Positions 5,029-37,180 of a DNA stretch of 58,959 nucleotides are shown piece after piece. The stretch is from a virus (taxonomy: Duplodnaviria; Heunggongvirae; Uroviricota; Caudoviricetes). Position numbers and translations under genes: made by a program. The notes under the pieces are model-generated. The model saw only the letters and a program-made list of their open reading frames with translations, was not told where the DNA came from and ran no database searches. The stretch lies in the IMG/VR virus record IMGVR_UViG_2541047708_000006; one strand, 5' to 3'. Every line of letters begins with the position of its first letter. Within the stretch, counting starts at the first letter, position 1.

Positions 5029-5307
5029 TCAGCTCCATTCCCGAAGCGGTGTTTCCAGCTCCACGACATAATCAGAGAATACAGAAACATCAAACAAGTC
5101 ATCAAGAATGCGAATGTTGACAAAATAACCATCATTCCGGATACAGACAGGTTCTCCCTCTTCTGTTACCCCTGTTTCTGTGTAGGTGAAACCAATTTCA
5201 TCAACTAACAGTTTATTCTGGAGGTCTTCATCTTCCGCCCAGCCAAGAGATGACAGGAAGGCCTTAAACTGCAGTTTGTCATAAAACTTCAAAGTTAAAT
5301 CTTTCAT
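5029..5307 (-). CDS. Small protein downstream of tail fibre gene (possible fibre chaperone)
   Basis: 92 aa ORF overlapping the stf stop by 4 nt (coupled); not a canonical Tfa. Confidence 0.5.
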   Translation of the reverse strand: MKDLTLKFYDKLQFKAFLSSLGWAEDEDLQNKLLVDEIGFTYTETGVTEEGEPVCIRNDGYFVNIRILDDLFDVSVFSDYVVELETPLREWS

Positions 5308-19253: not shown

Positions 19254-20033
19254 TTACGCCAGTTGTACGGACACGAACGCATCAGGGTCAGCCAGCAGCA
19301 TCAGCGGTGCTGACTGAATCATGGTGAACTCACGCGCCGGATCGCCGGTGGTCACCCAGTTTTTCGGGTAGCGGGCAGAGGCGTTAATACCTTCGCGCTG
19401 TGCGTCCGCATCCTGAATGCAGCCATAGGTGCGCAGACCGCGTGCCTGAGTGTTCCCCAGCACCATCGTGTTGTCCGGCAGGAAGTTCTTTTTGACGTCG
19501 TTTTCCACGTACTGTCCGGAATACACGACGATCGCCGTATCGCCATACATCCCCTTATAGGACACCGCTTCGCCCAGGTCTTTTACCGCTGTCTCCAGCT
19601 CGGAATTAGAGCCGCGACGGGTATCCAGCTTCTCCTTGACGGCTTTGAAGGAACGGAACAGCGCCCAGCCTTTCGGATCAAACACGATGATATTCACCAC
19701 GCCGCTGGCGTTCAGCGCGTAGGCTTCGATATCGTCGGTCGGGTCATACGTGGACTTGTCACGCTTGCTCCACTCCGTACCACCGGACTGTGTGATGTTG
19801 TTCGCCGCACTGCGGCCCATATCCACTTCAACCGGATCGAAGGCTTCACCGGTCATGGTGTATTTGCCCTTAAGCACGGCAGAAACTGCCTGCATCTCTT
19901 CGACCTGAGCAATGGCCAGCTCTTCGTCTCGCATGTTCTGCATGATGATGCGACGGCGGCGGTAAGCCGGGTCCGCCAGATTCTGTGGATCTTCATCCGG
20001 CAGGCGACGCAGGGTCATCTGCGGATTCACCTC
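19254..20033 (-). pseudogene. E: Major capsid protein E, 3' portion (codons 83-341) separated from its 5' portion by the inserted satellite
   Basis: Translation EVNPQMTLRRLPDEDPQNLADPAYRRRRIIMQNMRDEE... matches recalled lambda gpE from residue 83; no upstream start; stop codon 3 codons upstream of junction. Confidence 0.9.
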
Positions 20034-20034
20034 A

Positions 20035-20044
20035 TGCTTGGGTT
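20035..20044 (+). repeat. Satellite att core, left copy (TGCTTGGGTT)
   Basis: Identical 10-mer at 30768-30777; lies exactly at the break in gene E. Confidence 0.8.
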
Positions 20045-20203
20045 ACATGAGTCAATGGTGTAAGTATGTGAATGATATAAGAGGAAAAATAGAGCATAAT
20101 CTCTACCTGAATGGCTATGTTGCAATACACACTGCAATACACAGAAATCAATGTACAAACCATTCAATTATCAACCCACAAATGAAGTGAATAAAGATTT
20201 GTT

Positions 20204-20965
20204 ATGAATATTATAGATACCCTTCAAAATGACCTAGAGCGCGCAGTAGCGCTTCAAAACATACTAATTGCAAGAGCTACAGGAGCCCAGGATGAAGCTA
20301 ATAATGATTATTTGCTTCTAAGAACATATTTCTTACAAAATCCTCCTTTACATCAGCTATTACCAGAGTTTGTGAGAACTAATCGCTCACTAAAAGAATT
20401 TTGGGGATTTATAAAAAAGACTGAAAAGTATGCCCCCCGGAGAGATTTGATTTATAAGGCATTTCAGCCGATGCTGGACTATCTAGAAGGGAAAAATAAA
20501 GCTCCAGCGGATGAAGACATATCTGATGTATTAAGAAAGTTTAACGAGGATGGAGTCCACGCCGTTTGGATAAAAGCACTTGAACGGCGCCATACAGATC
20601 CGGATGGTGCGATAACCTCCGCAAGAACACTTCTTGAAACAGTTTGCAAACACATTCTTGATGATATGGGCATTCAGTATAATAATAAAAATATTGAAAT
20701 GTCAGAGCTTTATAAAACTCTTTCAAAAGAACTTAACCTATCTGCCGACCAACATACTGAAAATATCTTCAAACAAATTCTCGGCGGTTGTTCTGCAGTT
20801 GTAAATGGGTTAGGTACTCTTCGTAATAAACTCGGTGATGCACATGGAACGAACAGCTCATCAATTAAGCCATCCCCAAGGCATGCCGAACTTGCAGTAA
20901 ATTTATCAGGCTCAATGGCTCTTTTTTTAATTAACACTTGGTTAAACCTTAAAGATGGGAAATAA
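20204..20965 (+). CDS. HEPN-type Abi_C-like (abortive infection C-terminal domain) protein
   Basis: 253 aa, AT-rich; C-terminal motif LRNKLGDAHG (R-x6-H) typical of HEPN/Abi_C. Confidence 0.7.
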   Translation: MNIIDTLQNDLERAVALQNILIARATGAQDEANNDYLLLRTYFLQNPPLHQLLPEFVRTNRSLKEFWGFIKKTEKYAPRRDLIYKAFQPMLDYLEGKNKAPADEDISDVLRKFNEDGVHAVWIKALERRHTDPDGAITSARTLLETVCKHILDDMGIQYNNKNIEMSELYKTLSKELNLSADQHTENIFKQILGGCSAVVNGLGTLRNKLGDAHGTNSSSIKPSPRHAELAVNLSGSMALFLINTWLNLKDGK

Positions 20966-21187
20966 CGTATAATGAAGTAACACGAGCAATTAGTTAATCA
21001 TTATACTCAGTCGATTAATTTATTTTGACGACTCGTAAGCAATTTTTCGATGAGGGCGGAACTCCGCCCTCGGTGCTAACCTATGAGAAACGATATCTCT
21101 TCCACCGATACCATAATATTAGGTATCGCGAAGAAGCCCCAAAATCAGTGTGTTGCTTTTACTACCCAAACTACCTGTAGTTTCATA

Positions 21188-21213
21188 GTCGAGTTGCAAA
21201 TTTGCAATTCGAC
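21188..21213. promoter_or_regulatory. 26 bp near-perfect palindrome (candidate operator)
   Basis: GTCGAGTTGCAAATTTGCAATTCGAC; one symmetric mismatch pair. Confidence 0.4.
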
Positions 21214-21367
21214 TACCAGCCACAAGGCGTAAATTTGCGTCGTCAGGAATATCAACGAGTTAGCATATGAATAGGCCAAACGGCCACAAACCTCACTTTT
21301 GAGGCTTGCTCATTTATTAGCTGGCTATGGTAAGGCCCATTTTGGGGCCGTCGAGAAAATCAAAGAG

Positions 21368-21643
21368 TTATCGCCGCAGTCTGTCAGGCTTCTTCCACTG
21401 GTACGATGCAACGTTCTGGCGTTGTCCCTGCCTCCGCCTAGCTGCCAGTATAGCCAGCACTTTGGTGCGGATGACTAAGCAATCCTGTCCGTTCAGTTCT
21501 ATACCGTCACGCCACATAACCTCAGCAACCACACGAGCGTAATTTTCAGCGGTGACACTGCCCGGCTGCGTGGCCTGTTCGTCATGCTGGTGGCTGACTC
21601 CACCAGCATGGCAGATTACTTTCAGTAGTTCGGATTCAGTCAT
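21368..21643 (-). CDS. Hypothetical protein downstream of satellite TerS
   Basis: 91 aa ORF 12 bp downstream of TerS on the same strand. Confidence 0.4.
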   Translation of the reverse strand: MTESELLKVICHAGGVSHQHDEQATQPGSVTAENYARVVAEVMWRDGIELNGQDCLVIRTKVLAILAARRRQGQRQNVASYQWKKPDRLRR

Positions 21644-21654
21644 AGCGTACTACG

Positions 21655-22182
21655 TTACTTATCCTTATTCAGCTGCAACTTATCCGGTACGTTTCCTGTA
21701 CTTTCCATCAGATAATCAGCCAGTATCTGTGGGAGGTTGTCAGCAACGCCGGCACTGGCATTACAGGCTTTAGCCACTTCCTTTTTAAGTCCATCCAGCA
21801 TAGCCGGAGTCATCTGTGGGAAGCGCCTTTGCATGGTAAGCGGCAGGCTGTCCATGATAGATGAAATCTGACTCGCCAGTTTGGAAAGAACATACATACA
21901 AAACTCTGTATCAATAACGTCGCCGCGTTCGCGCTCGTTTTTAAGCTCCTGCGCCTCTGCCTGTGCTGTCAGTAATCTGATCCTGACGCGTAAAAGTTCA
22001 TCGTCATCAATATCGCCCGTTTCGTTTGTAATCTGGCTGATTGCATTGTTAACCCGATTATCTATTACACTGGCAACATCATAGAACGCCTCACGGCCCT
22101 TACGCTCGACGGGAATCACTCCCCACTTATCGAACGCAGTGGCGCTTACACGGCAACTTTTTGCCATGTTTTTTTTGTTCAT
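21655..22182 (-). CDS. Satellite small terminase subunit, divergent Nu1 homologue
   Basis: Aligns by eye with helper Nu1 (36411-36956) including C-terminal region ...LPLTMQRRFPQM...; start placed at MNKKNMAK. Confidence 0.8.
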   Translation of the reverse strand: MNKKNMAKSCRVSATAFDKWGVIPVERKGREAFYDVASVIDNRVNNAISQITNETGDIDDDELLRVRIRLLTAQAEAQELKNERERGDVIDTEFCMYVLSKLASQISSIMDSLPLTMQRRFPQMTPAMLDGLKKEVAKACNASAGVADNLPQILADYLMESTGNVPDKLQLNKDK

Positions 22183-22309
22183 CAGGTGTAATTTCATTGA
22201 TACCACAACTTAATTACTGTTTCAGGTTGGTGTATTGATTGTATTTTTCTCTTATTATTCATACAGATATAGCGAACAACAAAACCACCACCAGTCCCCT
22301 TAAAATGCT

Positions 22310-22370
22310 CATAAATAGCGAAAACCCGCGCGCCTGACGCCCCGTAGCCTGTCAGATCGCCGGAAAGGAC
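22310..22370 (-). promoter_or_regulatory. Satellite cos site (lambda-like cosN flanks, different 12-nt core)
   Basis: CATAAATAGCGAAAACCCGCG-CGCCTGACGCCC-CGTAGCCTGTCAGATCGCCGGAAAGGACCCG parallels helper cos at 37110-37175, differing mainly in the cohesive-end core. Confidence 0.7.
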
Positions 22371-22398
22371 CCGCCAGCCAGAGCAGGCCCTAATTTCA

Positions 22399-22782
22399 TC
22401 AACCAATCAGCTTATAGCGACCATCCCGTGCATTGCGGCGTACACGCTCAATCTTGAGGCATAGCGCCGCATCTGGCTTTTTTGGGACAGGTACGCGGCA
22501 ATATTCAGAAGCGCGAGGAATATTATTTATCCAGTCGATCACTTCACTTAAATACCAGGCCTTACGCCCTTCCGTAACCTGCACACGCTCCGGGAACTCT
22601 CCACTAGCCTCAAGGTTTAGCAGTGTACGACGACTCAGGGTTGTAATTTCCATCACCTGATTCATATCAACAAGGCGCTCGCTTAAACACATTTTGTCAG
22701 CGATAGCTTTTAATTCCTCTACAGCTTGATTCGGGTACATCATTTCGGCAATTGGCTTAAGGTCATTGTAATCATTCTGCAT
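22399..22782 (-). CDS. AlpA/excisionase-family HTH DNA-binding protein
   Basis: C-terminal half MEITTLSRRTLLNLEASGEFPERVQVTEGRKAWYLSEVIDWINN is an AlpA-like motif; start uncertain. Confidence 0.6.
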   Translation of the reverse strand: MQNDYNDLKPIAEMMYPNQAVEELKAIADKMCLSERLVDMNQVMEITTLSRRTLLNLEASGEFPERVQVTEGRKAWYLSEVIDWINNIPRASEYCRVPVPKKPDAALCLKIERVRRNARDGRYKLIG

Positions 22783-22793
22783 TGTATCCCCCT

Positions 22794-23135
22794 TTACACA
22801 CGAGCCAGCGGCTGAACAGAAATACCTGAGCCAACAAACGCTGCAACCTTTACTGACAGTTCTTTAACAGACTCAGGCCAGTTCAGAGCATCAACATTTA
22901 AGACACCTGTCTTATAGACCTGAGCCTGTGTTTTTTTCGCGGTGTCGATTTGTACAGCGGAAACATAAACCGCTTTACCTACGCTCGAACCATCCCATAC
23001 TACCAGTGCACCTGTTGCATCTTCCTGCATCAGTGGCGTAAATGCAGGAATTACCCCTTTATTAGCTGAAAATATCCCCAGCGTAGTCACCAGTGCTTCA
23101 GTGCCAGCCATGAGTTCAGTGTAATGAGTAGCCAT
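22794..23135 (-). CDS. Head decoration protein, divergent gpD homologue
   Basis: 113 aa; shares TPLM, LVxWDG, AxVGxxAV, LxWP, AFxG blocks with helper gpD (31068-31400). Confidence 0.7.
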   Translation of the reverse strand: MATHYTELMAGTEALVTTLGIFSANKGVIPAFTPLMQEDATGALVVWDGSSVGKAVYVSAVQIDTAKKTQAQVYKTGVLNVDALNWPESVKELSVKVAAFVGSGISVQPLARV

Positions 23136-23144
23136 TGCTCCCCC

Positions 23145-24191
23145 TTAGCCAATGCGAACGGTAACAAAACGATTGATGCGGGCCGGTATTGGCTGTGGTG
23201 CTGAATGTGTCTGCACATATTCAATAGCCGGATCACCAGGCACAATATAGTTTTTCGGTGCAAGTTCGGCTTTAGTCAGCCCCATTCGGATTAGCTCCGG
23301 ATCCTGAATACCGCCATAGGCGACAATCCCCTGAAGAGCCGTATTGCCAAGCACCATCAAATCAGGATCAAGGAAATGTTTTTCTGTTCCGTCCTCGTCG
23401 GTATAACGCCCGCTGTAAACAACAATCGCAACATCGCCCATATACCCTTTAAAACTCACCGAATCACCAAGGTCTTTAAGGGCCGTTTCCAGTTCGGAAT
23501 TAGAACCACGACGGGTATCCAGAGCCTCTTTTATCGCTCTGAATGAACGGTATTTCTTCCATACATTACCGCCCATAATGATAATATTAGTGACGCCCTC
23601 ACTAAATTCTGCGTAGCTCTCAATATCATCATTTGGATCAAAAGTTTCTTTATCCTTACCTGACCACTCAGCACCGCCAGACTGAGTGATGATATTTTGT
23701 GGTTTAATATTCCAGTCCAGCTCATAACGTTCAATACCATCGCCCTCAATGATATTTTTCCCCGTTGTGATTGCCTGAACGGCAAGCCATTCAATACGTG
23801 CACGAATAGCTTTAGCCTGATTTACAATCGCCTGTTTAACTTTAATATTACGCGCTCCAAAAGCATTGTATTGCTCAGGTGATACACCAACAGGGCGCAC
23901 AGCTAACTTATTTGGATCAATGCTGCTTTTCGGCTTCATATAGCCTGGACGAATTGTTTTTGATTCGTACCCTTCGTCACGTGAAACTTTACTACCCACC
24001 ATAGGAGAACAAAACGCTGCAATTGGGATATTTGGATCGTCGATTGTATCAAGAATAATATCGCGCGATTCAAACATTACCGAGCGAGTAAAAAACAAAC
24101 TGGTAAACAACGCATTTAGTTGTTTTTGTACATCTACAGCATTAACCACCTGTACAAGCTGGGTAGGCGAATATAAATCAACCATACGCAT
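23145..24191 (-). CDS. Major capsid protein, divergent gpE homologue
   Basis: Start placed at MRMVDLYSPTQL; C-terminal two thirds align with gpE (ITQSGGAEWSGKDKETFDPNDDIESYA..., LDTRRGSNSELETALKDLG...). Confidence 0.8.
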   Translation of the reverse strand: MRMVDLYSPTQLVQVVNAVDVQKQLNALFTSLFFTRSVMFESRDIILDTIDDPNIPIAAFCSPMVGSKVSRDEGYESKTIRPGYMKPKSSIDPNKLAVRPVGVSPEQYNAFGARNIKVKQAIVNQAKAIRARIEWLAVQAITTGKNIIEGDGIERYELDWNIKPQNIITQSGGAEWSGKDKETFDPNDDIESYAEFSEGVTNIIIMGGNVWKKYRSFRAIKEALDTRRGSNSELETALKDLGDSVSFKGYMGDVAIVVYSGRYTDEDGTEKHFLDPDLMVLGNTALQGIVAYGGIQDPELIRMGLTKAELAPKNYIVPGDPAIEYVQTHSAPQPIPARINRFVTVRIG

Positions 24192-24402
24192 CCTCTTTGC
24201 ATTCATTAAAAATAATTGTGGATATATGCTATCACCGATATTTGTCATGCGAATACATGCAACCGAGTGCAATGTTGTATAAAGTTTTGGGATAACAACT
24301 TCAGCGCGGATAATTAGTGTTAATATCTTCACTCCCTTTGGTCGGGATTTATGTAGCATGCCGGAAAATTTATTTTTTTCCGGCCTTTTTTATTGGCAAT
24401 AT

Positions 24403-24852
24403 TTAAAACGGAATATCATCTCCCCATTGTTCATTATCTCCCACTGGTGGATGGCTTCCTTGCTGATCTGCCTGTTGTTTTGCTCTGTTCAGTGCGTCAG
24501 TAGCCTGACCCTGTTGACCTTTTTTGCCGCCCGGTCGCACCGTTCGCGCACTGATTACGCTGTCTGCGATAACCTGCCAGCCCTGCCGCGTTTCACCGTT
24601 CTGTCCAGTCCACTGGCTCACCTGCATATTACCCGCCACGCTCAGGAGTTCGCCTTTGTGATGCTTTGCCAGCGCGTCGGCTTGTCTGCCAAACGCCAGG
24701 ACAGATAACCACATCGTCGCCTGACCGTCATCCGACTGACTGCAGGGCAGTGATACCGCCATACGCGCCAGCGTCATGGGGGTGCCCTTGCTGGTCTGTT
24801 TTGTCTGCGGGTCGTCCACCAACCGCCCGTAAACTGATATTTGCGCCGTCAT
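24403..24852 (-). CDS. ssb: Single-stranded DNA-binding protein
   Basis: OB-fold-like N-terminal region, Gly/Gln-rich linker and acidic C-terminal tail ending DDIPF. Confidence 0.85.
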   Translation of the reverse strand: MTAQISVYGRLVDDPQTKQTSKGTPMTLARMAVSLPCSQSDDGQATMWLSVLAFGRQADALAKHHKGELLSVAGNMQVSQWTGQNGETRQGWQVIADSVISARTVRPGGKKGQQGQATDALNRAKQQADQQGSHPPVGDNEQWGDDIPF

Positions 24853-25094
24853 GCTGCCTGCTCTCCGGACTTAATATTGATTGTTGCCACTTCCTCCGCT
24901 TCAGCAATCTCCCGTTCGGTCAGAGTGGCAAAGTTTGCAGCCGCCGTTGTCATGAATGCGCTAATCAGTTCGGGATGTGCTTTCGCGTATCCTTCCCCGG
25001 CGTTGCGGTCGATGATTTTTATCGACACCCTTAACCAGTGTTCCGTCAAATCAAGGGCGTGCGATTGTGATTTTTTTGTGTGCTTCGCTGTCAT
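24849..25094 (-). CDS. Hypothetical protein
   Basis: 81 aa ORF between iterons and ssb, overlaps ssb start by 4 nt. Confidence 0.4.
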   Translation of the reverse strand: MTAKHTKKSQSHALDLTEHWLRVSIKIIDRNAGEGYAKAHPELISAFMTTAAANFATLTEREIAEAEEVATINIKSGEQAA

Positions 25095-25146
25095 AGGCTT
25101 TATCTCACAGCAGTAAATTAAAATTTTTGCGTTTTAACCCTTCACC

Positions 25147-25368
25147 TGTTCACCTTTTGATATTTTCTCTTTTAATTCATAATGTTAATGGGTGAACAGT
25201 TTCACAAAAACTATTCACCAACTGTTCACCACTGTTCACCCTTGAAGCTCAATAAACAATCAAAAAGGTGAACAGTGAATAGTTTGGTGAACAGTTCATA
25301 AATAACTGTTCACCCTATAATATACTGATATAAAAGATATTTATGACAGGGTGAACAGTGGTGAACAG
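25147..25368. repeat. Satellite replication origin iterons (GGTGAACAG / CTGTTCACC, about 9 copies, both orientations)
   Basis: Repeated octamer TGTTCACC, the motif bound by phage P4 alpha protein at ori/crr; immediately downstream of the primase gene. Confidence 0.8.
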
Positions 25369-25381
25369 TTATTCCATAAGT

Positions 25382-27202
25382 TTAATTTTTGCTATCGTCA
25401 TTAGTGACCGATACACATGATGGCATCCAGTCTTCTGATTCCTCCGTCAGTGTCACGTTTGAACGCAAACCGTGCTTCGTTTTCCGTTTCATATACTCCC
25501 TGCCATATTCCGCCATTGCCCCCGGCATATCTTTACCGAAGCGCGTCAGTGTTACAGGTTTACCAAACCCATGTGCCCTCATATAAGCCAGATAGGCATG
25601 ATAGAGATACCTGCGTGGGCTGAATGGCACAATTTCAGCATTACCCACTAACAGGCCATCACACATTACCGATGCCATGAGATAGCCGCAGAAGTCCACC
25701 AGCGAATCCCCCTCTCGCTTTATCGCCAGTGCTTCTTCAGATTTCTGCTGCTCATATAACAGGCGTCTGGCTTCGTCCTGATCAGCAAACCGTGTAAGCA
25801 GATGGCGAATCACTACCGCCAGCTCACCTTCTATTTTTTCCGCCAGCATCGAATCGCGTTCGTTCTCCGGTACAACTTCCGAAAAATTGAATATCACCCG
25901 ACGACGTGAGATCCCCCCGCTGCGGTCACTGAATGACATGGCGTTATTGTTAACCGCCAGCACTACTGCCGGAATACGCGTTGAATAGGGGGCTTTGTGT
26001 TTCGGGTCAATTGCCACCTTGTCACCGCCTGTAATGGCCTTAATCCCTGCCCCATCACCAGCGTAGCGGGTCATATCCGGCATGATAATCAGCGAAAAGC
26101 CAACCACTAACGCACGTTCCCTTGCATCTTCCAGCGCCTTCATGCTTGCTGATACTGTATTCGCCTTACCCGCCAGCATGGTGCAAATCTCCGCCATCAC
26201 ACTTTTACCACTTCCCCCCGGCCCTGTTACCTCAATGAATAACTGCCAGTCGTACCGGTTCGCCAGCACCATGAATAATGCCGCCAGTACGCGATCTGCC
26301 TTGCGGTCATTCTCAGCCACCGAACGGCGCAACCACTTCCAGAAATTCGGCGCATGTGTTGCCAGCGTTTCCCCCTCTGCTGGTGGGCTGAAAGGTAATT
26401 CACTGGCAATTAACAACCAGTCGTTTTTGTTATGCTCCCGAAAATTACCAGTTCTGGTATCAAATACCCCGTTACTGAATCCAATCAGGTTACGGGCTGT
26501 ATTCCCCATTACAGGCAAACTTAACTTCATGGTATCTACCGCCGATTTAATGGCGTTCTGCGAATAGCTGATCTCCGCATCAATGAAAATCTGCGCCATA
26601 GCACGCTGTAACTCTTTATCCTGAACCGGCTCCCATACAACGCCGTTGTAATGATGAACGGTGTCAGAGTCGGCATTGATTGCCAGTTCGCCGCCGTAAT
26701 GTGCAAGGAGAACTTCACCGCGCTGGCTGGCCCCCATCTGATTCAACGCCAAAGATGAAGCACGCTCGTCATTTTTGCGCTCTGCCTTCTTCACTGGCAG
26801 TTCAATCACCAGACTTTCCCCATGCTCCGCTTCAGCTTTTAGGCCGACAAGGCGCGGAGTCCAGTCTTCAGGCTCTCGATCAACAAAGCTACGGTAACAA
26901 CGTGCTTCCTTTACGCCTGCAATAGCAAGTAATGTCGCAACCTTCGTCAGACTTTTCTCTGCAATCTTTCCGGCACGATAAACACGCACATAATGACGGC
27001 CTTCATCGATAATTTGCATATCATCCAGGTTTTCCAGTTGTTCCGTACCCAGAATGACTGGTGGTGTATCATCTGCTGCAATATGCTTACCTGCCCATTC
27101 ATTCCATTCTTTTGCATGGCTCCAGGCATCACTGCCAGCAAAAATGATGACTTCCGTCATTTTGTCGCGCGGTTGGTATTTTAAGTTCGGAGCACGTTTC
27201 AT
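25382..27202 (-). CDS. P4 alpha-like primase-helicase
   Basis: 606 aa; Walker A GPGGSGKS in the central region; position next to TGTTCACC iterons. Confidence 0.85.
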   Translation of the reverse strand: MKRAPNLKYQPRDKMTEVIIFAGSDAWSHAKEWNEWAGKHIAADDTPPVILGTEQLENLDDMQIIDEGRHYVRVYRAGKIAEKSLTKVATLLAIAGVKEARCYRSFVDREPEDWTPRLVGLKAEAEHGESLVIELPVKKAERKNDERASSLALNQMGASQRGEVLLAHYGGELAINADSDTVHHYNGVVWEPVQDKELQRAMAQIFIDAEISYSQNAIKSAVDTMKLSLPVMGNTARNLIGFSNGVFDTRTGNFREHNKNDWLLIASELPFSPPAEGETLATHAPNFWKWLRRSVAENDRKADRVLAALFMVLANRYDWQLFIEVTGPGGSGKSVMAEICTMLAGKANTVSASMKALEDARERALVVGFSLIIMPDMTRYAGDGAGIKAITGGDKVAIDPKHKAPYSTRIPAVVLAVNNNAMSFSDRSGGISRRRVIFNFSEVVPENERDSMLAEKIEGELAVVIRHLLTRFADQDEARRLLYEQQKSEEALAIKREGDSLVDFCGYLMASVMCDGLLVGNAEIVPFSPRRYLYHAYLAYMRAHGFGKPVTLTRFGKDMPGAMAEYGREYMKRKTKHGLRSNVTLTEESEDWMPSCVSVTNDDSKN

Positions 27203-27486
27203 TTGTTACCTCCGGCAACTAACATTGCCCGAATTTTACGGATATAGCCTGCGGCACGCCTCTGATTATCTGTCTTGCAATTTTTTACCAGAATGAAATC
27301 TCTTTCGAACTGCTGACGCGGCATAACACATTCAAAATCATAACCATCACGCAAATAAGAGACACGACGATCATCAACCGAAATAATCTTTACCCGATAG
27401 CCATAGCTATCTTTGAAAATATCCCCAAGGCTGATTTTTGAATGAGTTTGACCGCTGGCAATAAAGCCAGAAAATTTATTTTTCAT
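27199..27486 (-). CDS. Hypothetical protein
   Basis: 95 aa, overlaps primase start by 4 nt. Confidence 0.5.
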   Translation of the reverse strand: MKNKFSGFIASGQTHSKISLGDIFKDSYGYRVKIISVDDRRVSYLRDGYDFECVMPRQQFERDFILVKNCKTDNQRRAAGYIRKIRAMLVAGGNK

Positions 27487-27489
27487 TTT

Positions 27490-27714
27490 TTATTCTCCGG
27501 TATAGCTCTGGTCGTGTATTTTTATAGCTTCATCCAGCTCTTTGATGACAGGATCAAGTAACGTAATTAACGCTCCAGCTAAATTAGCATCCCGTTCATC
27601 GTGTTCCGCATTTGTTGTCCCATCAAGCCAGGTTGATAAGATTTCTCGCATATTTTTGCCACAAACGAGCGCGTTTTCAGCATGTGTCAGCACTTTAAAA
27701 TAAAGATCATTCAT
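27490..27714 (-). CDS. Hypothetical protein
   Basis: 74 aa, acidic; tightly packed in operon. Confidence 0.5.
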   Translation of the reverse strand: MNDLYFKVLTHAENALVCGKNMREILSTWLDGTTNAEHDERDANLAGALITLLDPVIKELDEAIKIHDQSYTGE

Positions 27715-28072
27715 GGCACACCTCCTGACGAATACGGGCGGCGAACATCATCACGCAGCCAGTTGGGGATTGCTGGCGGGCTTCCTGTTCGCTGGTGGCC
27801 TCGATGGTAATCACGCGCGGTTGTGCCGTACTCAGGGCGATAAAACGCCAGATGAAATTGTTTTCACATTTCTGAATAAACAGCGTGTTTTCTTCCCGCC
27901 CTTTCCAGAAAGCCGCAGTATAGCCCATCTCCTTAACCATCTTGCGCGCATCAACCAGCGTGTCAGCGGCTACATGTACCGTAGTTGCTCCATCTGCTAT
28001 GCGATCGCGATGTAGCGCCAGAAAGATGTATATAAATTTAGGGTGAGTTTGGGTATGCTGTGTTCCAGCCAT
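27707..28072 (-). CDS. Hypothetical protein
   Basis: 121 aa; first gene of leftward satellite operon. Confidence 0.5.
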   Translation of the reverse strand: MAGTQHTQTHPKFIYIFLALHRDRIADGATTVHVAADTLVDARKMVKEMGYTAAFWKGREENTLFIQKCENNFIWRFIALSTAQPRVITIEATSEQEARQQSPTGCVMMFAARIRQEVCHE

Positions 28073-28103
28073 AGTCGTTACTCCAGTTAACGGTTTGTGG
28101 TTA

Positions 28104-28208
28104 GACGCCCTAGGTGTGTTGCGAGCACCCTAGGGCGTTGTTTATAGGTATAACATCATGTTAATGTGTGTACCTATTCAACACTGATGCTAAGCAATAG
28201 GTACACAC
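28104..28208. promoter_or_regulatory. Divergent promoter/operator region with two inverted repeats
   Basis: GACGCCCTAGGTG...CACCCTAGGGCG and GTGTGTACCTATT...AATAGGTACACAC; the second abuts the ATG at 28209. Confidence 0.4.
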
Positions 28209-28403
28209 ATGTCAACTACAATTCAAAGAGATAAGCAGCCAAAAGGAGCCGGCAAAGCCCCTGCGTTTCAGATCCGAATCAATCCTGAACTCAAAGAACA
28301 GATGGCTGAATCAGCAGCTCAGGAAGGAATGAGCTTGGCCAATTGGATTAAAGAATTAGTTCGTGCTGAGCTTCGCCGTAAAGGTATAGAACCTAAAGGC
28401 TAA
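28209..28403 (+). CDS. Ribbon-helix-helix (Arc/CopG-like) small DNA-binding protein
   Basis: 64 aa; FQIRINPELKEQMAESAAQEGMSLANWIKELVRAEL fits beta-strand/helix/helix pattern. Confidence 0.6.
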   Translation: MSTTIQRDKQPKGAGKAPAFQIRINPELKEQMAESAAQEGMSLANWIKELVRAELRRKGIEPKG

Positions 28404-28435
28404 TTTTTTTAATTTTTATTGAATAGGATATTCAA

Positions 28436-29119
28436 ATGACTCCAACTCCTGACGATGCTGTATTCACTGCATCAAACATTATAAATTTCTTCGTGGCACT
28501 CGGGACTTGCACAGCAGTGTTAGTTGCATTAATTGCTAAAAAGCAATCATCTTTTGAATCAACATTTTCTCTCATGTTATCTCAACATAACAATGCTCTA
28601 AATGATCTTAGAAAAAAATCAAATTACTCAGAGTTAATTAATAAAATGATGAATGGATTGGTTTCTTTAAAAGACACTAATACACTGATGCACAATCATG
28701 ATGCTGTTTTTGGAAGCTACTTCAGAATATTATATCATCTATTGAAGTTCATTGATGAAAATGCTGGATACCATCCCTTTGATCTAGATCGTAAAAAAAC
28801 CTATACAAGCCTTGTCCGTGCACATCTAGATAATGAAATAACGTATTTACTTGCAATAAACTGTGCACATGCTAACAGTGAAAATCAATATCATTTTTAT
28901 AAAACATTGATTGAGCGCTATGCCATGTTAGAACATTTAATCTTGGATAAATCAACGCTATTGGACTATACCCCTCCAGATTTAAATGAATATCAAAAAG
29001 ATTTGCGCGTAGCAACAATAGTGGTTACCGATGATATAAAAACTATTTTTAACGAGATTGCAACAGTATATTATAAGAGCGCATTTGGAAAAAACCCTGA
29101 TTTAAAAAATTTCCTGTAA
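28436..29119 (+). CDS. Membrane-anchored protein of unknown function (candidate abortive-infection effector)
   Basis: 227 aa, AT-rich; one N-terminal TM helix (IINFFVALGTCTAVLVALIA); 33 bp downstream of the RHH gene. Confidence 0.65.
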   Translation: MTPTPDDAVFTASNIINFFVALGTCTAVLVALIAKKQSSFESTFSLMLSQHNNALNDLRKKSNYSELINKMMNGLVSLKDTNTLMHNHDAVFGSYFRILYHLLKFIDENAGYHPFDLDRKKTYTSLVRAHLDNEITYLLAINCAHANSENQYHFYKTLIERYAMLEHLILDKSTLLDYTPPDLNEYQKDLRVATIVVTDDIKTIFNEIATVYYKSAFGKNPDLKNFL

Positions 29120-29145
29120 GATATAGGGAGGAATACCTCCCTAAC

Positions 29146-29367
29146 TTACCATTCACCTCTTATCCAAGCTTGAATCTCAGAGAGTCTATAAGCCACCGCC
29201 GTAGATCCGATTTTGATTCGCTTGGGGAATTTCCCCTCCTTTTCAAGCTTCCAGCGTGTGCTGTTCGCAAGAGTGGTTAGCTCCCGACATTCTTTCTCAC
29301 GGATCATTCGGTCAATGTTAGGAATGTACTCCAGCCCCTTTTTATCAACAATTGCCATTTTTTTCAT
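29146..29367 (-). CDS. alpA: AlpA-family transcriptional regulator/excisionase
   Basis: 73 aa, typical AlpA pattern, directly downstream of integrase. Confidence 0.8.
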   Translation of the reverse strand: MKKMAIVDKKGLEYIPNIDRMIREKECRELTTLANSTRWKLEKEGKFPKRIKIGSTAVAYRLSEIQAWIRGEW

Positions 29368-29368
29368 G

Positions 29369-30604
29369 CTAACCAGCCTTTTGTTTGAGGATTGTCACTT
29401 TTGAATCAGCAGCTGCGATGCTATTGAGATATGTAGTCCAGAGTTCCAGAGCATCCAGTTTTTTAGCCATAAACTTACTCCGGTTGTAAACACCTGCCAC
29501 GCCAGGTAGCGCATGGCCTAACAGTTGTTCTACTACATAAAATTCAACACCGAGATCACTTAGATGAGTAGATAGCGTTCTTCTAAGGTCGTGTAGTGAC
29601 CATTGTTTTTCATGGCCCAAACGTTTACCGATTTTCCCCCCAATCTTGCTTACGCTTTCTCTAATTCGCAGACTTCCCAGCACATAACCAGTATGTTTTG
29701 TCTCTTCGTGAACATCCGTTACCCACTGCCGTAGAATTTCAGGTACTGGCCTGACAATTTCAACACCAGTTTTTGAGTGATCTTTCGGTACAGTCCAAAC
29801 CCAACTTTCTAGATCCCATTCGCTCCATTCTGATAATCGGGCTTCACTCATTCGACATCCAAATACTGTACAAAGCACAAACATTTTTCGCGTGTATTCA
29901 GACATTAGTTTTAAATCAGGCTCGACAAAAATTGCCTTCCAGAGCTGGCCCAGTTCGGCTTCATCCAGAACCCGATCCCGCTTACCTGCAATCTGCCCCA
30001 CATCACTCATGCGCAAATCCTTTAAAGCATCACACGTCGCGTACTGGCGTACCCGACAAAAACGAAGAGCTAATTTAGTGTCAGAAAAAACATACGCCGC
30101 CATAACTGGTGCATTACGTTTAATTCGGTCAAAACAGTCCAGCCATTCATATAGGTGAGTGTCATTTACGGGCAAATGACCGATATAGGGAAAGATATGC
30201 TTTCGAAATCTGCCAAGCGTTACAGCATGAGTTTTACGACGCACCTTACAGTAATTTTCATACCAGTAATTTAGTGCATCCTCCACTGTGACCGGCTTTA
30301 AGCGTTCTTCAGCCTGAATCTTAATCTGAATACGCGGATCACGTTTGTCAGCCAACCAACCACGGCACTCGTCGCGCTTTTCCCTTGCCTGTTTGAGTGA
30401 CATATCAGGATATTTACCCAACGTTAGCCAGACCGGAGCAGCCCGGCCACCTGCTAACCTGTAGAAGAAAACAAAGCTCACAGCCCCCTTGGTACTCACA
30501 CGAATAGAAAGCCCCTTTCCATCAGCAATGGTGATCTGCTTTTCTCTAGGTTTCCCCAGATATCCTTTAAGTGCTTTGTCGCTCAGTTTGTTCTCGCCAG
30601 CCAT
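29369..30604 (-). CDS. int: Tyrosine integrase (P4-like)
   Basis: Start placed at MAGENKLSDKALK (ORF track extends 44 codons further upstream); C-terminal HDLRRT...GH...Y catalytic signature; adjacent to att core. Confidence 0.9.
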   Translation of the reverse strand: MAGENKLSDKALKGYLGKPREKQITIADGKGLSIRVSTKGAVSFVFFYRLAGGRAAPVWLTLGKYPDMSLKQAREKRDECRGWLADKRDPRIQIKIQAEERLKPVTVEDALNYWYENYCKVRRKTHAVTLGRFRKHIFPYIGHLPVNDTHLYEWLDCFDRIKRNAPVMAAYVFSDTKLALRFCRVRQYATCDALKDLRMSDVGQIAGKRDRVLDEAELGQLWKAIFVEPDLKLMSEYTRKMFVLCTVFGCRMSEARLSEWSEWDLESWVWTVPKDHSKTGVEIVRPVPEILRQWVTDVHEETKHTGYVLGSLRIRESVSKIGGKIGKRLGHEKQWSLHDLRRTLSTHLSDLGVEFYVVEQLLGHALPGVAGVYNRSKFMAKKLDALELWTTYLNSIAAADSKVTILKQKAG

Positions 30605-30766
30605 TTTTAGCCCCAAAAAGCAATACAAGCTGCAATACAGAGATGATTGCAACACACAGATAACGAGGAAAATCCAGTGAAAGCGCCAGATAAACTTACT
30701 CTTTATTATCAAAAGATTAAGTGTAAAAACCAGCAACTACACGAAAGCCTCAGAAAGCCATGCTAA

Positions 30767-31012
30767 GTGCTTGGGTTTGACATATCCCGGTGTAAATTCA
30801 GAGGTGGAGCCGCCACGGGATCGGATAACCTCACCGGAAACAATCGGCGAAACGTACAGCGCCATGTTTACCAGTCCCGGAATTTGTGAGAGATAGACTT
30901 TCTCCGTGGTGAAGGGATAGCTCTCACGGAAAAAGAGACGCAGAAACAGCGGATCAAACTTAAATTTCTTCTCATTTGCCGCCAGCAGCTGGGCGGTTGT
31001 GTACATCGACAT
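30767..31012 (-). pseudogene. E: Major capsid protein E, 5' portion (codons 1-82), reads into satellite and stops after 9 foreign codons
   Basis: MSMYTTAQLLAANEKKFKFDPLF...GYVKPKH matches recalled gpE N-terminus, then LAWLSEAFV-stop. Confidence 0.9.
30768..30777 (+). repeat. Satellite att core, right copy (TGCTTGGGTT)
   Basis: Identical to 20035-20044. Confidence 0.8.
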
Positions 31013-32729: not shown

Positions 32730-36410
<3,681 letters not shown>

Positions 36411-36436
<26 letters not shown>

Positions 36437-36956
36437 TCAGCAACCCCGGTATCAGTTCATCCAGCGCGGCTGCTTTGTTCATGGCTTTGATGATATCCCG
36501 TTTCAGGAAATCAATATGCCGGTTATCCAGCTCAGGAAAACGCCGCTGCACCGACAGGGGGATCCCGTCGAGAATACTGGCAATTTCACCTGCGATCCGC
36601 GACAGCACGAAAGTACAGAATGCGGTTTCCACTACTTCAGCGGAGTCTCTGGCATTTTTCAGCTCCTGTGCGTCGGCCTGCGCACGCGTAAGTCGATGGC
36701 GTTCGTACTCAATAGTCCCAGGCTGGAGATCTGCCTCGCTGGCAGCCCTGTAATCCTCAACCTCTTTACGGAGTTTTTCATTTTCGATATCAGCTTCCCT
36801 CTGCGCATACCACTGAATTGCCATGGCGGTATCAAATACAGATTCAACGCCCTTACTACCTCCGGAGACGCAAGGGAGTCCCTGAGACTGCCAGCGTTCA
36901 ATCGTTCGCGGATCCACGTTGAAAATTTCGGCAAGTTTCTTTTTATTAACCTTCAT
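36411..36956 (-). CDS. Nu1: Terminase small subunit Nu1
   Basis: [23 protein letters not shown]...; lambda Nu1-like; about 190 bp from cosN as in lambda. Confidence 0.95.
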
Positions 36957-37098
36957 GAAACAGTCTCACAATAAATACAGGGTCCGACATGAAAGTGCCC
37001 GAAAATGACTTTTTTAGGCGTTTTCATGTCGGACCTTTTACGGATTCGATATTAGAAAAAACAAATAGTTATGTTCGAGAAGTACCGACATGATTTTC

Positions 37099-37180
37099 CC
37101 CGGAAAAATTTCATAAATAGCGAAAACCCGCGAGGTCGCCGCCCCGTAACCTGTCGGATCGCCGGAAAGGACCCGAAAAA
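37099..37180 (-). promoter_or_regulatory. Helper prophage cos site (cosN core about 37133-37144, cohesive end GGGCGGCGACCT on minus strand)
   Basis: Reverse complement reads GGGCGGCGACCTCGCGGGTTTTCGCTATTTATGAAA..., the lambda left end; preceded by ...CCGACAGGTTACG as at the lambda right end. Confidence 0.85.

Follow-up and report, generated by a model that had tools for sequence, protein, structure and literature searches.

The 10.7-kb helper-embedded PICI that resides in the prophage analysed here probably owns a working cos, called site A in the following, at which the satellite's small terminase (TerS) acts together with the large terminase (TerL) of the helper; its 12-mer, which differs from that of the resident helper, is best read as a tolerated allele of cosN. 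For the contacts between the two proteins our confidence is lower. The sequence under study, the whole stretch of 58,959 bases, is here called the window.

Satellites of the PICI type disseminate genes of virulence and defence, and the specificity of their packaging sets which helper they can exploit. For E. coli satellites of the cos type, the arrangement described here is a third one: a private cosB is combined with an own TerS of the Nu1 family, and only the TerL-dependent parts of cos are kept. In the other two, the helper's whole cos is borrowed, or an Rpp goes with a private cosB. As such, a satellite cos with a variant core is a real and fairly ordinary feature; the embedded configuration (PMC10111431) and variation in cosN's right half (PMC4669245) are already known.

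Anatomy of the two cos sites

The window contains two related sites, A (22310-22373) and B (37112-37175), both of them confirmed at these positions. They have the same orientation and lie 14.8 kb apart in the composite prophage; every relevant gene is encoded on the minus strand. Common to the two sites are flanks of 21 nt and 31 nt; the 12-mer enclosed by these is different at 5 of its 12 positions. The left flank, CATAAATAGCGAAAACCCGCG, is identical at 21/21 positions (22310-22330 vs 37112-37132), the right one, CGTA.CCTGTC.GATCGCCGGAAAGGACCCG, at 29/31, and beyond both flanks the similarity ends sharply in the alignment. When all 58,959 bases were searched for the flank pattern and as many as 3 mismatches were allowed, exactly these two sites came up, with 0.00 expected from 100 shuffles. 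On the plus strand the 12-mers read CGCCTGACGCCC at site A (22331-22342) and AGGTCGCCGCCC at site B (37133-37144). Read on the minus strand, which is that of the genes, they become GGGCGTCAGGCG and GGGCGGCGACCT, respectively, the latter being the lambda cohesive end as quoted (PMC12315714). With the lambda convention applied to site A (bp 1 = 22342, minus strand), the two cores differ at bp 6, 8, 9, 10 and 12.

The flank identities and the chance expectation of 0.00 bear out the original prediction that site A parallels the helper cos; the sequences had been quoted correctly, while the coordinates given for the site (22311-22368) were 1 to 5 bases off. Five differences in 12 also agree with its statement that the 12-mer is unlike that of the resident helper, and the attribution of a lambda-type cos to the satellite is supported.

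The anatomy of site A is easily read from left to right on the minus strand. Its cosQ (22366-22372, GGGTCCT) is identical to that of the helper at 37168-37174 and invariant in 79 satellite and 79 helper loci; as in cos sites of the lambda type, it precedes the left nick by about 30 bp. cosQ is the element of packaging termination (PMC4669245, PMC9026076). In the entropy profile, the spacer between cosQ and cosN (22343-22365) is hypervariable in a patch from about bp -17 to -5, and its TACG beside the nick is invariant. Then follows the cosN 12-mer at 22331-22342, the putative 5' cohesive end GGGCGTCAGGCG, with nick positions that we infer from lambda. Both the left nick, TACG|GGGCG, and the right nick, GCG|CGCGGG, are present, each with its CG; bp 1-5 are those of the helper, and bp 6 is T instead of G. 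The 21 bases to the right (bp 13-33, CGCGGGTTTTCGCTATTTATG, 22310-22330) are identical in satellite and helper. They are the right-hand edge of the common cos core and a junction between modules.

From there on, the satellite goes its own way. In its specific cosB (22207-22309, minus strand, 103 bp) the alignment with the helper's cosB breaks down, and the segment is nearly invariant among related satellites. Helper R-like sites were not found near the satellite cos, and searches of the satellite cosB for lambda-style R3/R2/R1 repeats and for the IHF consensus yielded neither internal R-type repeats nor a match; weak resemblances, GGTTGGTGT, occur at about bp 110-118. Singled out by conservation alone is one block, GGTGGTGGTTTTGTTG (22277-22292, minus strand), the candidate TerS-binding element, to which TerS may bind. 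It occupies bp 51-66, the position of R3 in lambda, has zero entropy in 79 satellites and is unique in the window at the stringency used. In lambda-type cosB, the TerS-binding site at the R3 distance covers about bp 48-65. In these respects the satellite cosB is similar to the simple one of N15 and to the "R3-PICI" proposal (PMC4669245, PMC9026076). That the flanking elements recognised by terminase are conserved, as had been predicted, is accordingly correct for cosQ, the left half of cosN and bp 13-33, and incorrect for cosB, the part that TerS recognises, since the R-like sites of the helper are absent near the satellite cos.

The helper cos is built on the lambda plan. Its core (37112-37175, minus strand) comprises cosQ at 37168-37174, GGGCGGCGACCT at 37133-37144 and bp 13-33 at 37112-37132. 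Its cosB (36981-37093, minus strand) contains three R-like sites, TCATGTCGG(A/T)(C/A)C, at 37082-37093 (minus), 37024-37035 (plus) and 36981-36992 (minus), which correspond to bp 52-63, 110-121 and 153-164. The outer sites are direct and the middle one is inverted; arrangement and spacing are those of the complex cosB of the lambda type (PMC4669245). Downstream of site B there is a complete terminase operon of the lambda type, with Nu1 (36411-36956, minus strand; Pfam Phage_Nu1, 1e-89) starting at bp 189, and gpA, the TerL (34511-36436, minus strand; Pfam GpA_ATPase and GpA_nuclease), next to it; portal, protease and decoration genes come after. The TerL of the helper is presumed to be the nuclease that cuts both cos sites.

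The helper, too, shows a peculiarity. Its R-like sites, TCATGTCGG.., are unlike lambda R, though phages with a lambda-type cosB have a nearly identical gpA. Its Nu1 is 79% identical to that of PhiR46_1, a phage with lambda-type cosB. It seems that the helper packages with a specificity of its own while it uses a shared TerL.

The satellite and its small terminase

The satellite as a whole extends from 20035 to 30777 (minus strand, 10,733 bp) and sits inside the helper's capsid gene E. It is bounded by 10-bp repeats, TGCTTGGGTT, at 20035-20044 and 30768-30777, which leave E split into an N-terminal fragment (30768-31012) and a C-terminal one (19254-20048); the intact E of a related contig (L360) maps to 19254-20048 and 30768-31012 with an overlap of 16 nt. 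Among its genes are a tyrosine integrase, two AlpA-type regulators, a D5-type primase, an SSB, the Nu1-family TerS and Abi-type genes, further an E-like capsid gene (23145-24359) and a D-like decoration gene (22794-23135). Integrase, AlpA and primase, the lack of a full virion set and a size of 10,733 bp (about 10-20 kb are expected) mark a PICI. Core genes co-oriented with the late genes of the helper (minus strand), the split E and the 10-bp repeat mark the helper-embedded kind (HE-PICI), a configuration known from 11capE in 50icd, with 201 cases of the capE type (PMC10111431). The same module of cos and TerS is found elsewhere: L360 has it in a satellite that sits within a portal gene, L361 in an island of the chromosome with clpS and cspD as its neighbours, and in O157:H7 (L001) it adjoins phoQ. 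Four copies of the satellite make 42.9 kb and would fill a lambda-sized head; multimers of EcCICFT073 are reported to fill the head likewise, as PMC10111431 relates with reference to Fillol-Salom 2018.

Some further features of the element deserve mention. Defence-like cargo is present as an Abi_C-family gene (20204-20965, plus strand) between the TerS gene and the att site, and as a putAbiC-family gene (28436-29119, plus strand) with a HicB-like gene (28209-28403, plus strand) between alpA and the replication genes. In relatives, a restriction endonuclease occupies the Abi_C-equivalent spot (L002), and a TIR-domain protein the putAbiC-equivalent one beside alpA/int (L359). Just downstream of the primase, at 25191-25379, three direct repeats of a motif of the GGTGAACAGTT.. 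type are spaced by about 95 and 74 bp; the GGTGAACAGTT repeats may be the iterons of the satellite's replication origin.

Directly after cos comes the gene of the satellite TerS (21655-22206, minus strand), with a longest reading frame of 183 aa. The protein matches Pfam PF07471 (Phage_Nu1) with 1e-24 and 87.4 bits (cut-off 30) over model positions 34-162, and phrog_57, "terminase small subunit", with 3e-53 over residues 3-177. Possible starts at 22206, 22197 and 22182 lie at distances of 137, 146 and 161 bp from the base with which the putative cohesive end begins. An ATG start at 22197 or 22182 is likely; depending on the start, the protein has 175-183 aa. The Pfam and phrog_57 matches and the distance of 137-161 bp confirm that, as had been proposed, a Nu1-like gene stands beside cos in the layout of lambda cos and terS. 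On the other side of cos, an AlpA/HTH-type regulator gene (22399-22782, minus strand; Pfam Phage_AlpA 7.5e-9, phrog_2790) ends 27 bp upstream of cosQ; it is part of the module left of cos.

The satellite TerS is 34% identical overall to the helper's Nu1, and the identities are concentrated in the C-terminal two-thirds: 19 fall into the 75 N-terminal alignment columns and 44 into the remaining 127. Small terminases of the Nu1 family contact their TerL via the C-terminus and cosB via an N-terminal winged helix. This distribution of identities fits a putative change of DNA-binding specificity, with oligomerisation and TerL contact probably retained. In none of 80 related loci was a gpA homologue found within 1.5 kb of TerS, and this family of TerS therefore depends on a foreign TerL.

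A chain of events can be proposed. The satellite would retain what the helper's TerL and termination need, i.e., cosQ, the CG dinucleotides at the nick sites, bp 1-5 and bp 13-33, and would swap the part that chooses whose DNA is packaged, by means of a private cosB with an element at the R3 position and an own TerS. The satellite cosB would be bound by the satellite TerS via its diverged N-terminal DNA-binding domain. The conserved C-terminal part of the same protein would then recruit the helper's TerL, and TerL would nick 12 bp apart to leave the 5' overhang GGGCGTCAGGCG, with cosQ serving termination. The satellite 12-mer would depart from that of the helper only in cosN's right half, to which lambda-type TerL is known to be indifferent. 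Since both chromosome ends would stem from the same satellite cos in a concatemer, they would be complementary and permit circularisation, whatever the allele.

What supports this proposal directly is the anatomy of the site, its conservation pattern, the sharing of alleles (see below) and the near-identity of TerL. The nick positions, the binding of TerS to cosB and the pairing of TerS with TerL we infer. From the literature it is known that E. coli PICIs keep cosQ and cosN and change cosB (PMC6739421, PMC9026076). Experiments on related elements speak against the proposal: the only HE-PICI that was induced experimentally gave no detectable particles (PMC10111431), and TerS-encoding E. coli PICIs, which are mentioned in the literature without characterisation, showed no transfer from their native strains when tested (PMC6092414).

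The pattern of conservation in TerS also permits a different partner. Possibly, though we have our doubts, the satellite protein resembles an Rpp in forming mixed oligomers with the helper's Nu1 via the conserved central and C-terminal region; the mixed complex might then block helper packaging and be redirected to the satellite cosB. The oligomerisation/C-terminal part is indeed the most conserved one between the satellite TerS and the helper's Nu1, the gene stands where rpp would be, right behind a PICI cos whose cosB is private (PMC9026076), and Rpp has a TerS-like winged-helix domain, too (PMC6739421, PMC9026076). The satellite protein, however, is a full-length member of the Nu1 family, C-terminal segment included, whereas Rpps, which bind the TerS of the helper, have 139-154 aa and an oligomerisation domain of different origin (PMC9026076). 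A comparison of the satellite TerS with solved structures yielded no chain at E<=1, which is a weak negative, as the search also missed the solved fragment of lambda TerS; its DNA-binding fold is assumed from family membership. A mixed complex of this kind is an alternative that is compatible with the main explanation, the use of a private cos with the helper's TerL.

Core alleles in satellites and phages

How the variant core is to be understood was judged from two samples of IMG/VR loci, 80 satellites and 79 helpers, which were anchored on TerS proteins and, thus, are unbiased as to cos sequence. The samples include clonal relatives, so the following allele counts are not independent events. 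In the satellites the canonical core occurs 56 times, GGGCGTCAGGCG 9 times, GGGCGGAAGGCG and GGGCGGAGACCT 4 times each, GGGCGGCAGACG 3 times and GGGCGTCGACCT twice, and two are singletons. The helpers have the canonical core in 60 cases, GGGCGGAAGGCG in 15 and singletons in four, one of which is GGGCGTCAGGCG. The canonical allele thus makes up 70% of the satellites and 76% of the helpers. Column by column, the entropy follows the same pattern in 79 satellites and 79 helpers: cosQ, TACG|GGGCG, C11 and bp 13-34 are fixed in both sets; the spacer patch from about -17 to -5, bp 6-10 and bp 12 are variable in both.

Phages share the variant, as well. Three IMG/VR prophage contigs with a phage context (L128, L174 and L187) have exactly CGCCTGACGCCC, together with a Nu1 about 80% and a gpA 99-100% identical to those of the window; a pattern scan of IMG/VR revealed about 35 contigs with CGCCTTCCGCCC in the same phage context. 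A deposited phage genome, PhiR46_1 (PV340565), has the core GGGCGGAAGGCG and a gpA that is 99.1% identical to that of the window. The variant core is no satellite-specific trait; lambda-like phages and their satellites have several alleles, of which this is one. A "nicked core that has diverged", understood as a change specific to the satellite, was therefore not upheld: 56 of 80 satellites have the canonical core and 9 of 80 have GGGCGTCAGGCG, and phages with a 99-100% identical TerL carry it or a close variant.

These data also dispose of site A as a relic. It might have been a phage cos fragment that came in by recombination and remained unused, with a 12-mer that decayed as nothing cuts it; the 5 of 12 core positions that differ from the resident helper, and the absence of particles from the one HE-PICI tested (PMC10111431), could be taken in that sense. 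Yet cosQ, the nick CGs, bp 1-5 and bp 13-34 are as invariant in 79 satellites as in 79 phages, the distance from the site to the TerS gene downstream of it is always the same, and the allegedly decayed allele recurs unchanged in 9 satellites and occurs in phages, too, which points to a maintained allele and not to drift. The conservation pattern leads us to reject this highly improbable reading.

Tolerance of a variant core is in line with lambda genetics. Natural differences at bp 7-12 are common; mutations in the right half are harmless, and G2C is deleterious (PMC4669245). Lambda TerL cuts the cosN of lambda and of N15 equally well, and TerS bound to cosB positions TerL and makes nicking of the bottom strand insensitive to sequence (PMC4669245). 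The map of natural variation obtained here agrees with these published findings: bp 1-5, C11 and bp 13-34 are fixed, bp 6-10 and bp 12 are free. The G to T exchange at bp 6 sits just outside the zone of bp 7-12 that is experimentally tolerant. In the searchable literature, the exact 12-mer with its five differences was not found in a cos context; it may be listed in Vahanian et al. 2017, which is said to be a survey of cosN variation.

Of course, a variant core could also demand a nicking specificity of its own, in which case phages with a matching core, and not the resident one, would be the true helpers. A minority of helper-type phages with the same core does exist (L128, L174, L187). Their gpA, however, shares 99-100% identity with the resident helper's, which implies that there is no distinct nuclease, and lambda TerL displayed no preference for a cosN allele in published tests (PMC4669245). 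Nor does the core follow TerS: satellites with the same flank and TerS proteins 86-100% identical have four different cores, the canonical one included, and those with 100% identical TerS have canonical, TCAGGCG or GAAGGCG cores. The occurrence of the same TerL in phages with that core made us discard the variant core as a mark of a different true helper, an idea that retains hardly any plausibility. The same core alleles move between helpers and satellites. For matching a satellite to its helper the cohesive-end sequence is unusable; cosB and the type of TerS are informative.

Nor is a mismatch with the resident helper exceptional; it recurs in other composite prophages. In another capE composite (L359) the satellite core is TCAGGCG and that of the helper is canonical; the reverse is seen in L138, with a canonical satellite core and GGGCGGAAGGCG in the helper, and in L360 the two are matched. 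Three further IMG/VR contigs hold a variant and a canonical site; as they come from a scan directed at variants, no frequency is drawn from them.

Modules also meet at cos. Over the 1.2-kb stretch searched (21600-22800), E. coli K56-43-un (NZ_CP053079.1) is 100% identical to the window. The E. coli hits H21-H23 are about 97-99% identical to it only from 22302-22310 rightwards, a part that takes in cos together with the HTH and D-like genes. L002 (E. coli T-HYM1, NZ_CP141767.1; its cos is at locus position 5041), a relative embedded in capE, agrees with the window's satellite in the HTH gene, cosQ, spacer and variant core; right of bp 33, it has a lambda-type cosB and no intact TerS gene. Between the window and L002, two packaging strategies are swapped exactly at cos. 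Islands of the O157 type are similar to the window over the TerS gene, cosB and cosN, and the similarity stops at 22346-22374. The spacer alleles (22343-22365, 37145-37167 and related loci) are discrete, common to phages and satellites, and shuffled relative to the core alleles. The breakpoints in H21-H23, L002 and the O157-type islands, together with this shuffling, imply that exchange at or beside cosN is frequent. Its source may be ordinary recombination in the conserved flanks or packaging from one cos to another.

The latter process leads to the question of whether the core difference is adaptive. Cohesive-end alleles might act as incompatibility groups that keep the ends of satellite and helper from pairing, which we deem unlikely. 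Packaging from cos to cos would create ends with 5 mismatches in 12 that do not circularise, and the mismatch would suppress chimeras or the formation of hybrid cos sites. The right half of cosN and the spacer would then be kept polymorphic by selection, and the alleles would be compatibility groups among co-resident lambda-like phages and satellites. Variation is concentrated in two short patches, with a surrounding region of about 200 bp that is nearly invariant; the alleles differ at several positions at once and form two clusters; mismatched pairs of satellite and helper occur in both directions (the window, L359, L138); and a mismatch of 2 nt already costs about a fourfold drop in yield (PMC4669245). 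Relaxed constraint alone, however, predicts the same pattern, as right-half changes proved harmless in mutagenesis (PMC4669245). Matched pairs exist too (L360), the canonical allele is common to 70% of satellites and 76% of helpers, and several of the mismatched pairs, among only about seven pairs available in all, stem from a scan aimed at variant cores, which biases their frequency. All this leaves selection for incompatibility, or a polymorphism generated by composites with two cos sites, with a small chance of being right. In such composites, packaging from cos to cos could reshuffle the modules of spacer, core and cosB, and module junctions exactly at cosN, as between the window and L002 or the O157-type islands, would be explained.

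Relation to known packaging systems

With lambda cos, site A and its surroundings have in common the cosQ sequence GGGTCCT, the distance from cosQ to cosN, the left nick TACG|GGGCG, the CG of the right nick, bp 13-33 (identical to those of the resident helper), a conserved block where R3 would lie (bp 51-66) and a Nu1-family gene 137-161 bp from the end. They differ from it in the 12-mer at bp 6, 8, 9, 10 and 12, in the lack of a TerL gene after TerS, and in an unrelated, shorter cosB without detectable R2/R1 repeats or IHF consensus. Natural variants of cosN are familiar: N15 and phiD326 differ at bp 9 and 12, Gifsy-1 at bp 8, 9 and 11 (for N15 and Gifsy-1, see PMC4669245). In all of them, mEp213/LLS with GGGCGGCGCGCT included, the right part changes as in the satellite, and the left half, the nick CG and cosQ are conserved; the satellite core differs in having five changes, bp 6 among them.

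The closest relatives in terms of configuration are the capE-embedded elements. Like 11capE in 50icd (PMC10111431), the satellite sits in a lambda-type E, is co-oriented with the late genes, has a 10-bp identity block at att, measures about 11 kb and carries its own capsid gene. 11capE, in contrast, is reported without terS and with 258 bp of cos at 90% identity with its helper (PMC10111431); the satellite of the window has only about 64 bp of cos in common with the helper and, in addition, its own cosB and TerS. L002, in which the same variant core is joined to a lambda-type cosB, is a relative of the 11capE kind.

SaPIs are no more than functional analogues. There, too, a small terminase of the satellite and the large one of the helper select satellite DNA; their TerS, however, belongs to another protein family and directs headful (pac) packaging, whereas the present system is of the cos type with a TerS of the Nu1 family.

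The cos-rpp system of the EcCICFT073 type (Fillol-Salom 2018, 2019; Murialdo and Feiss 2022) also combines a helper-like cosQ and cosN with a private cosB and has a specificity gene directly downstream of cos; E-like and D-like genes, AlpA, primase and integrase are shared as well. The differences are that this downstream gene encodes a full-length Nu1-family TerS and not an Rpp, that the cosN core is not identical to that of the helper in its right half, and that the satellite resides in a capsid gene of the helper instead of the chromosome. An IMG/VR satellite contig, L243, recalls the two cos sites reported in EcCICFT073: it has two opposed cos sites, at 1362 (plus) and 2240 (minus), about 880 bp apart, one with a satellite-type cosB and the other with a lambda R3-type cosB.
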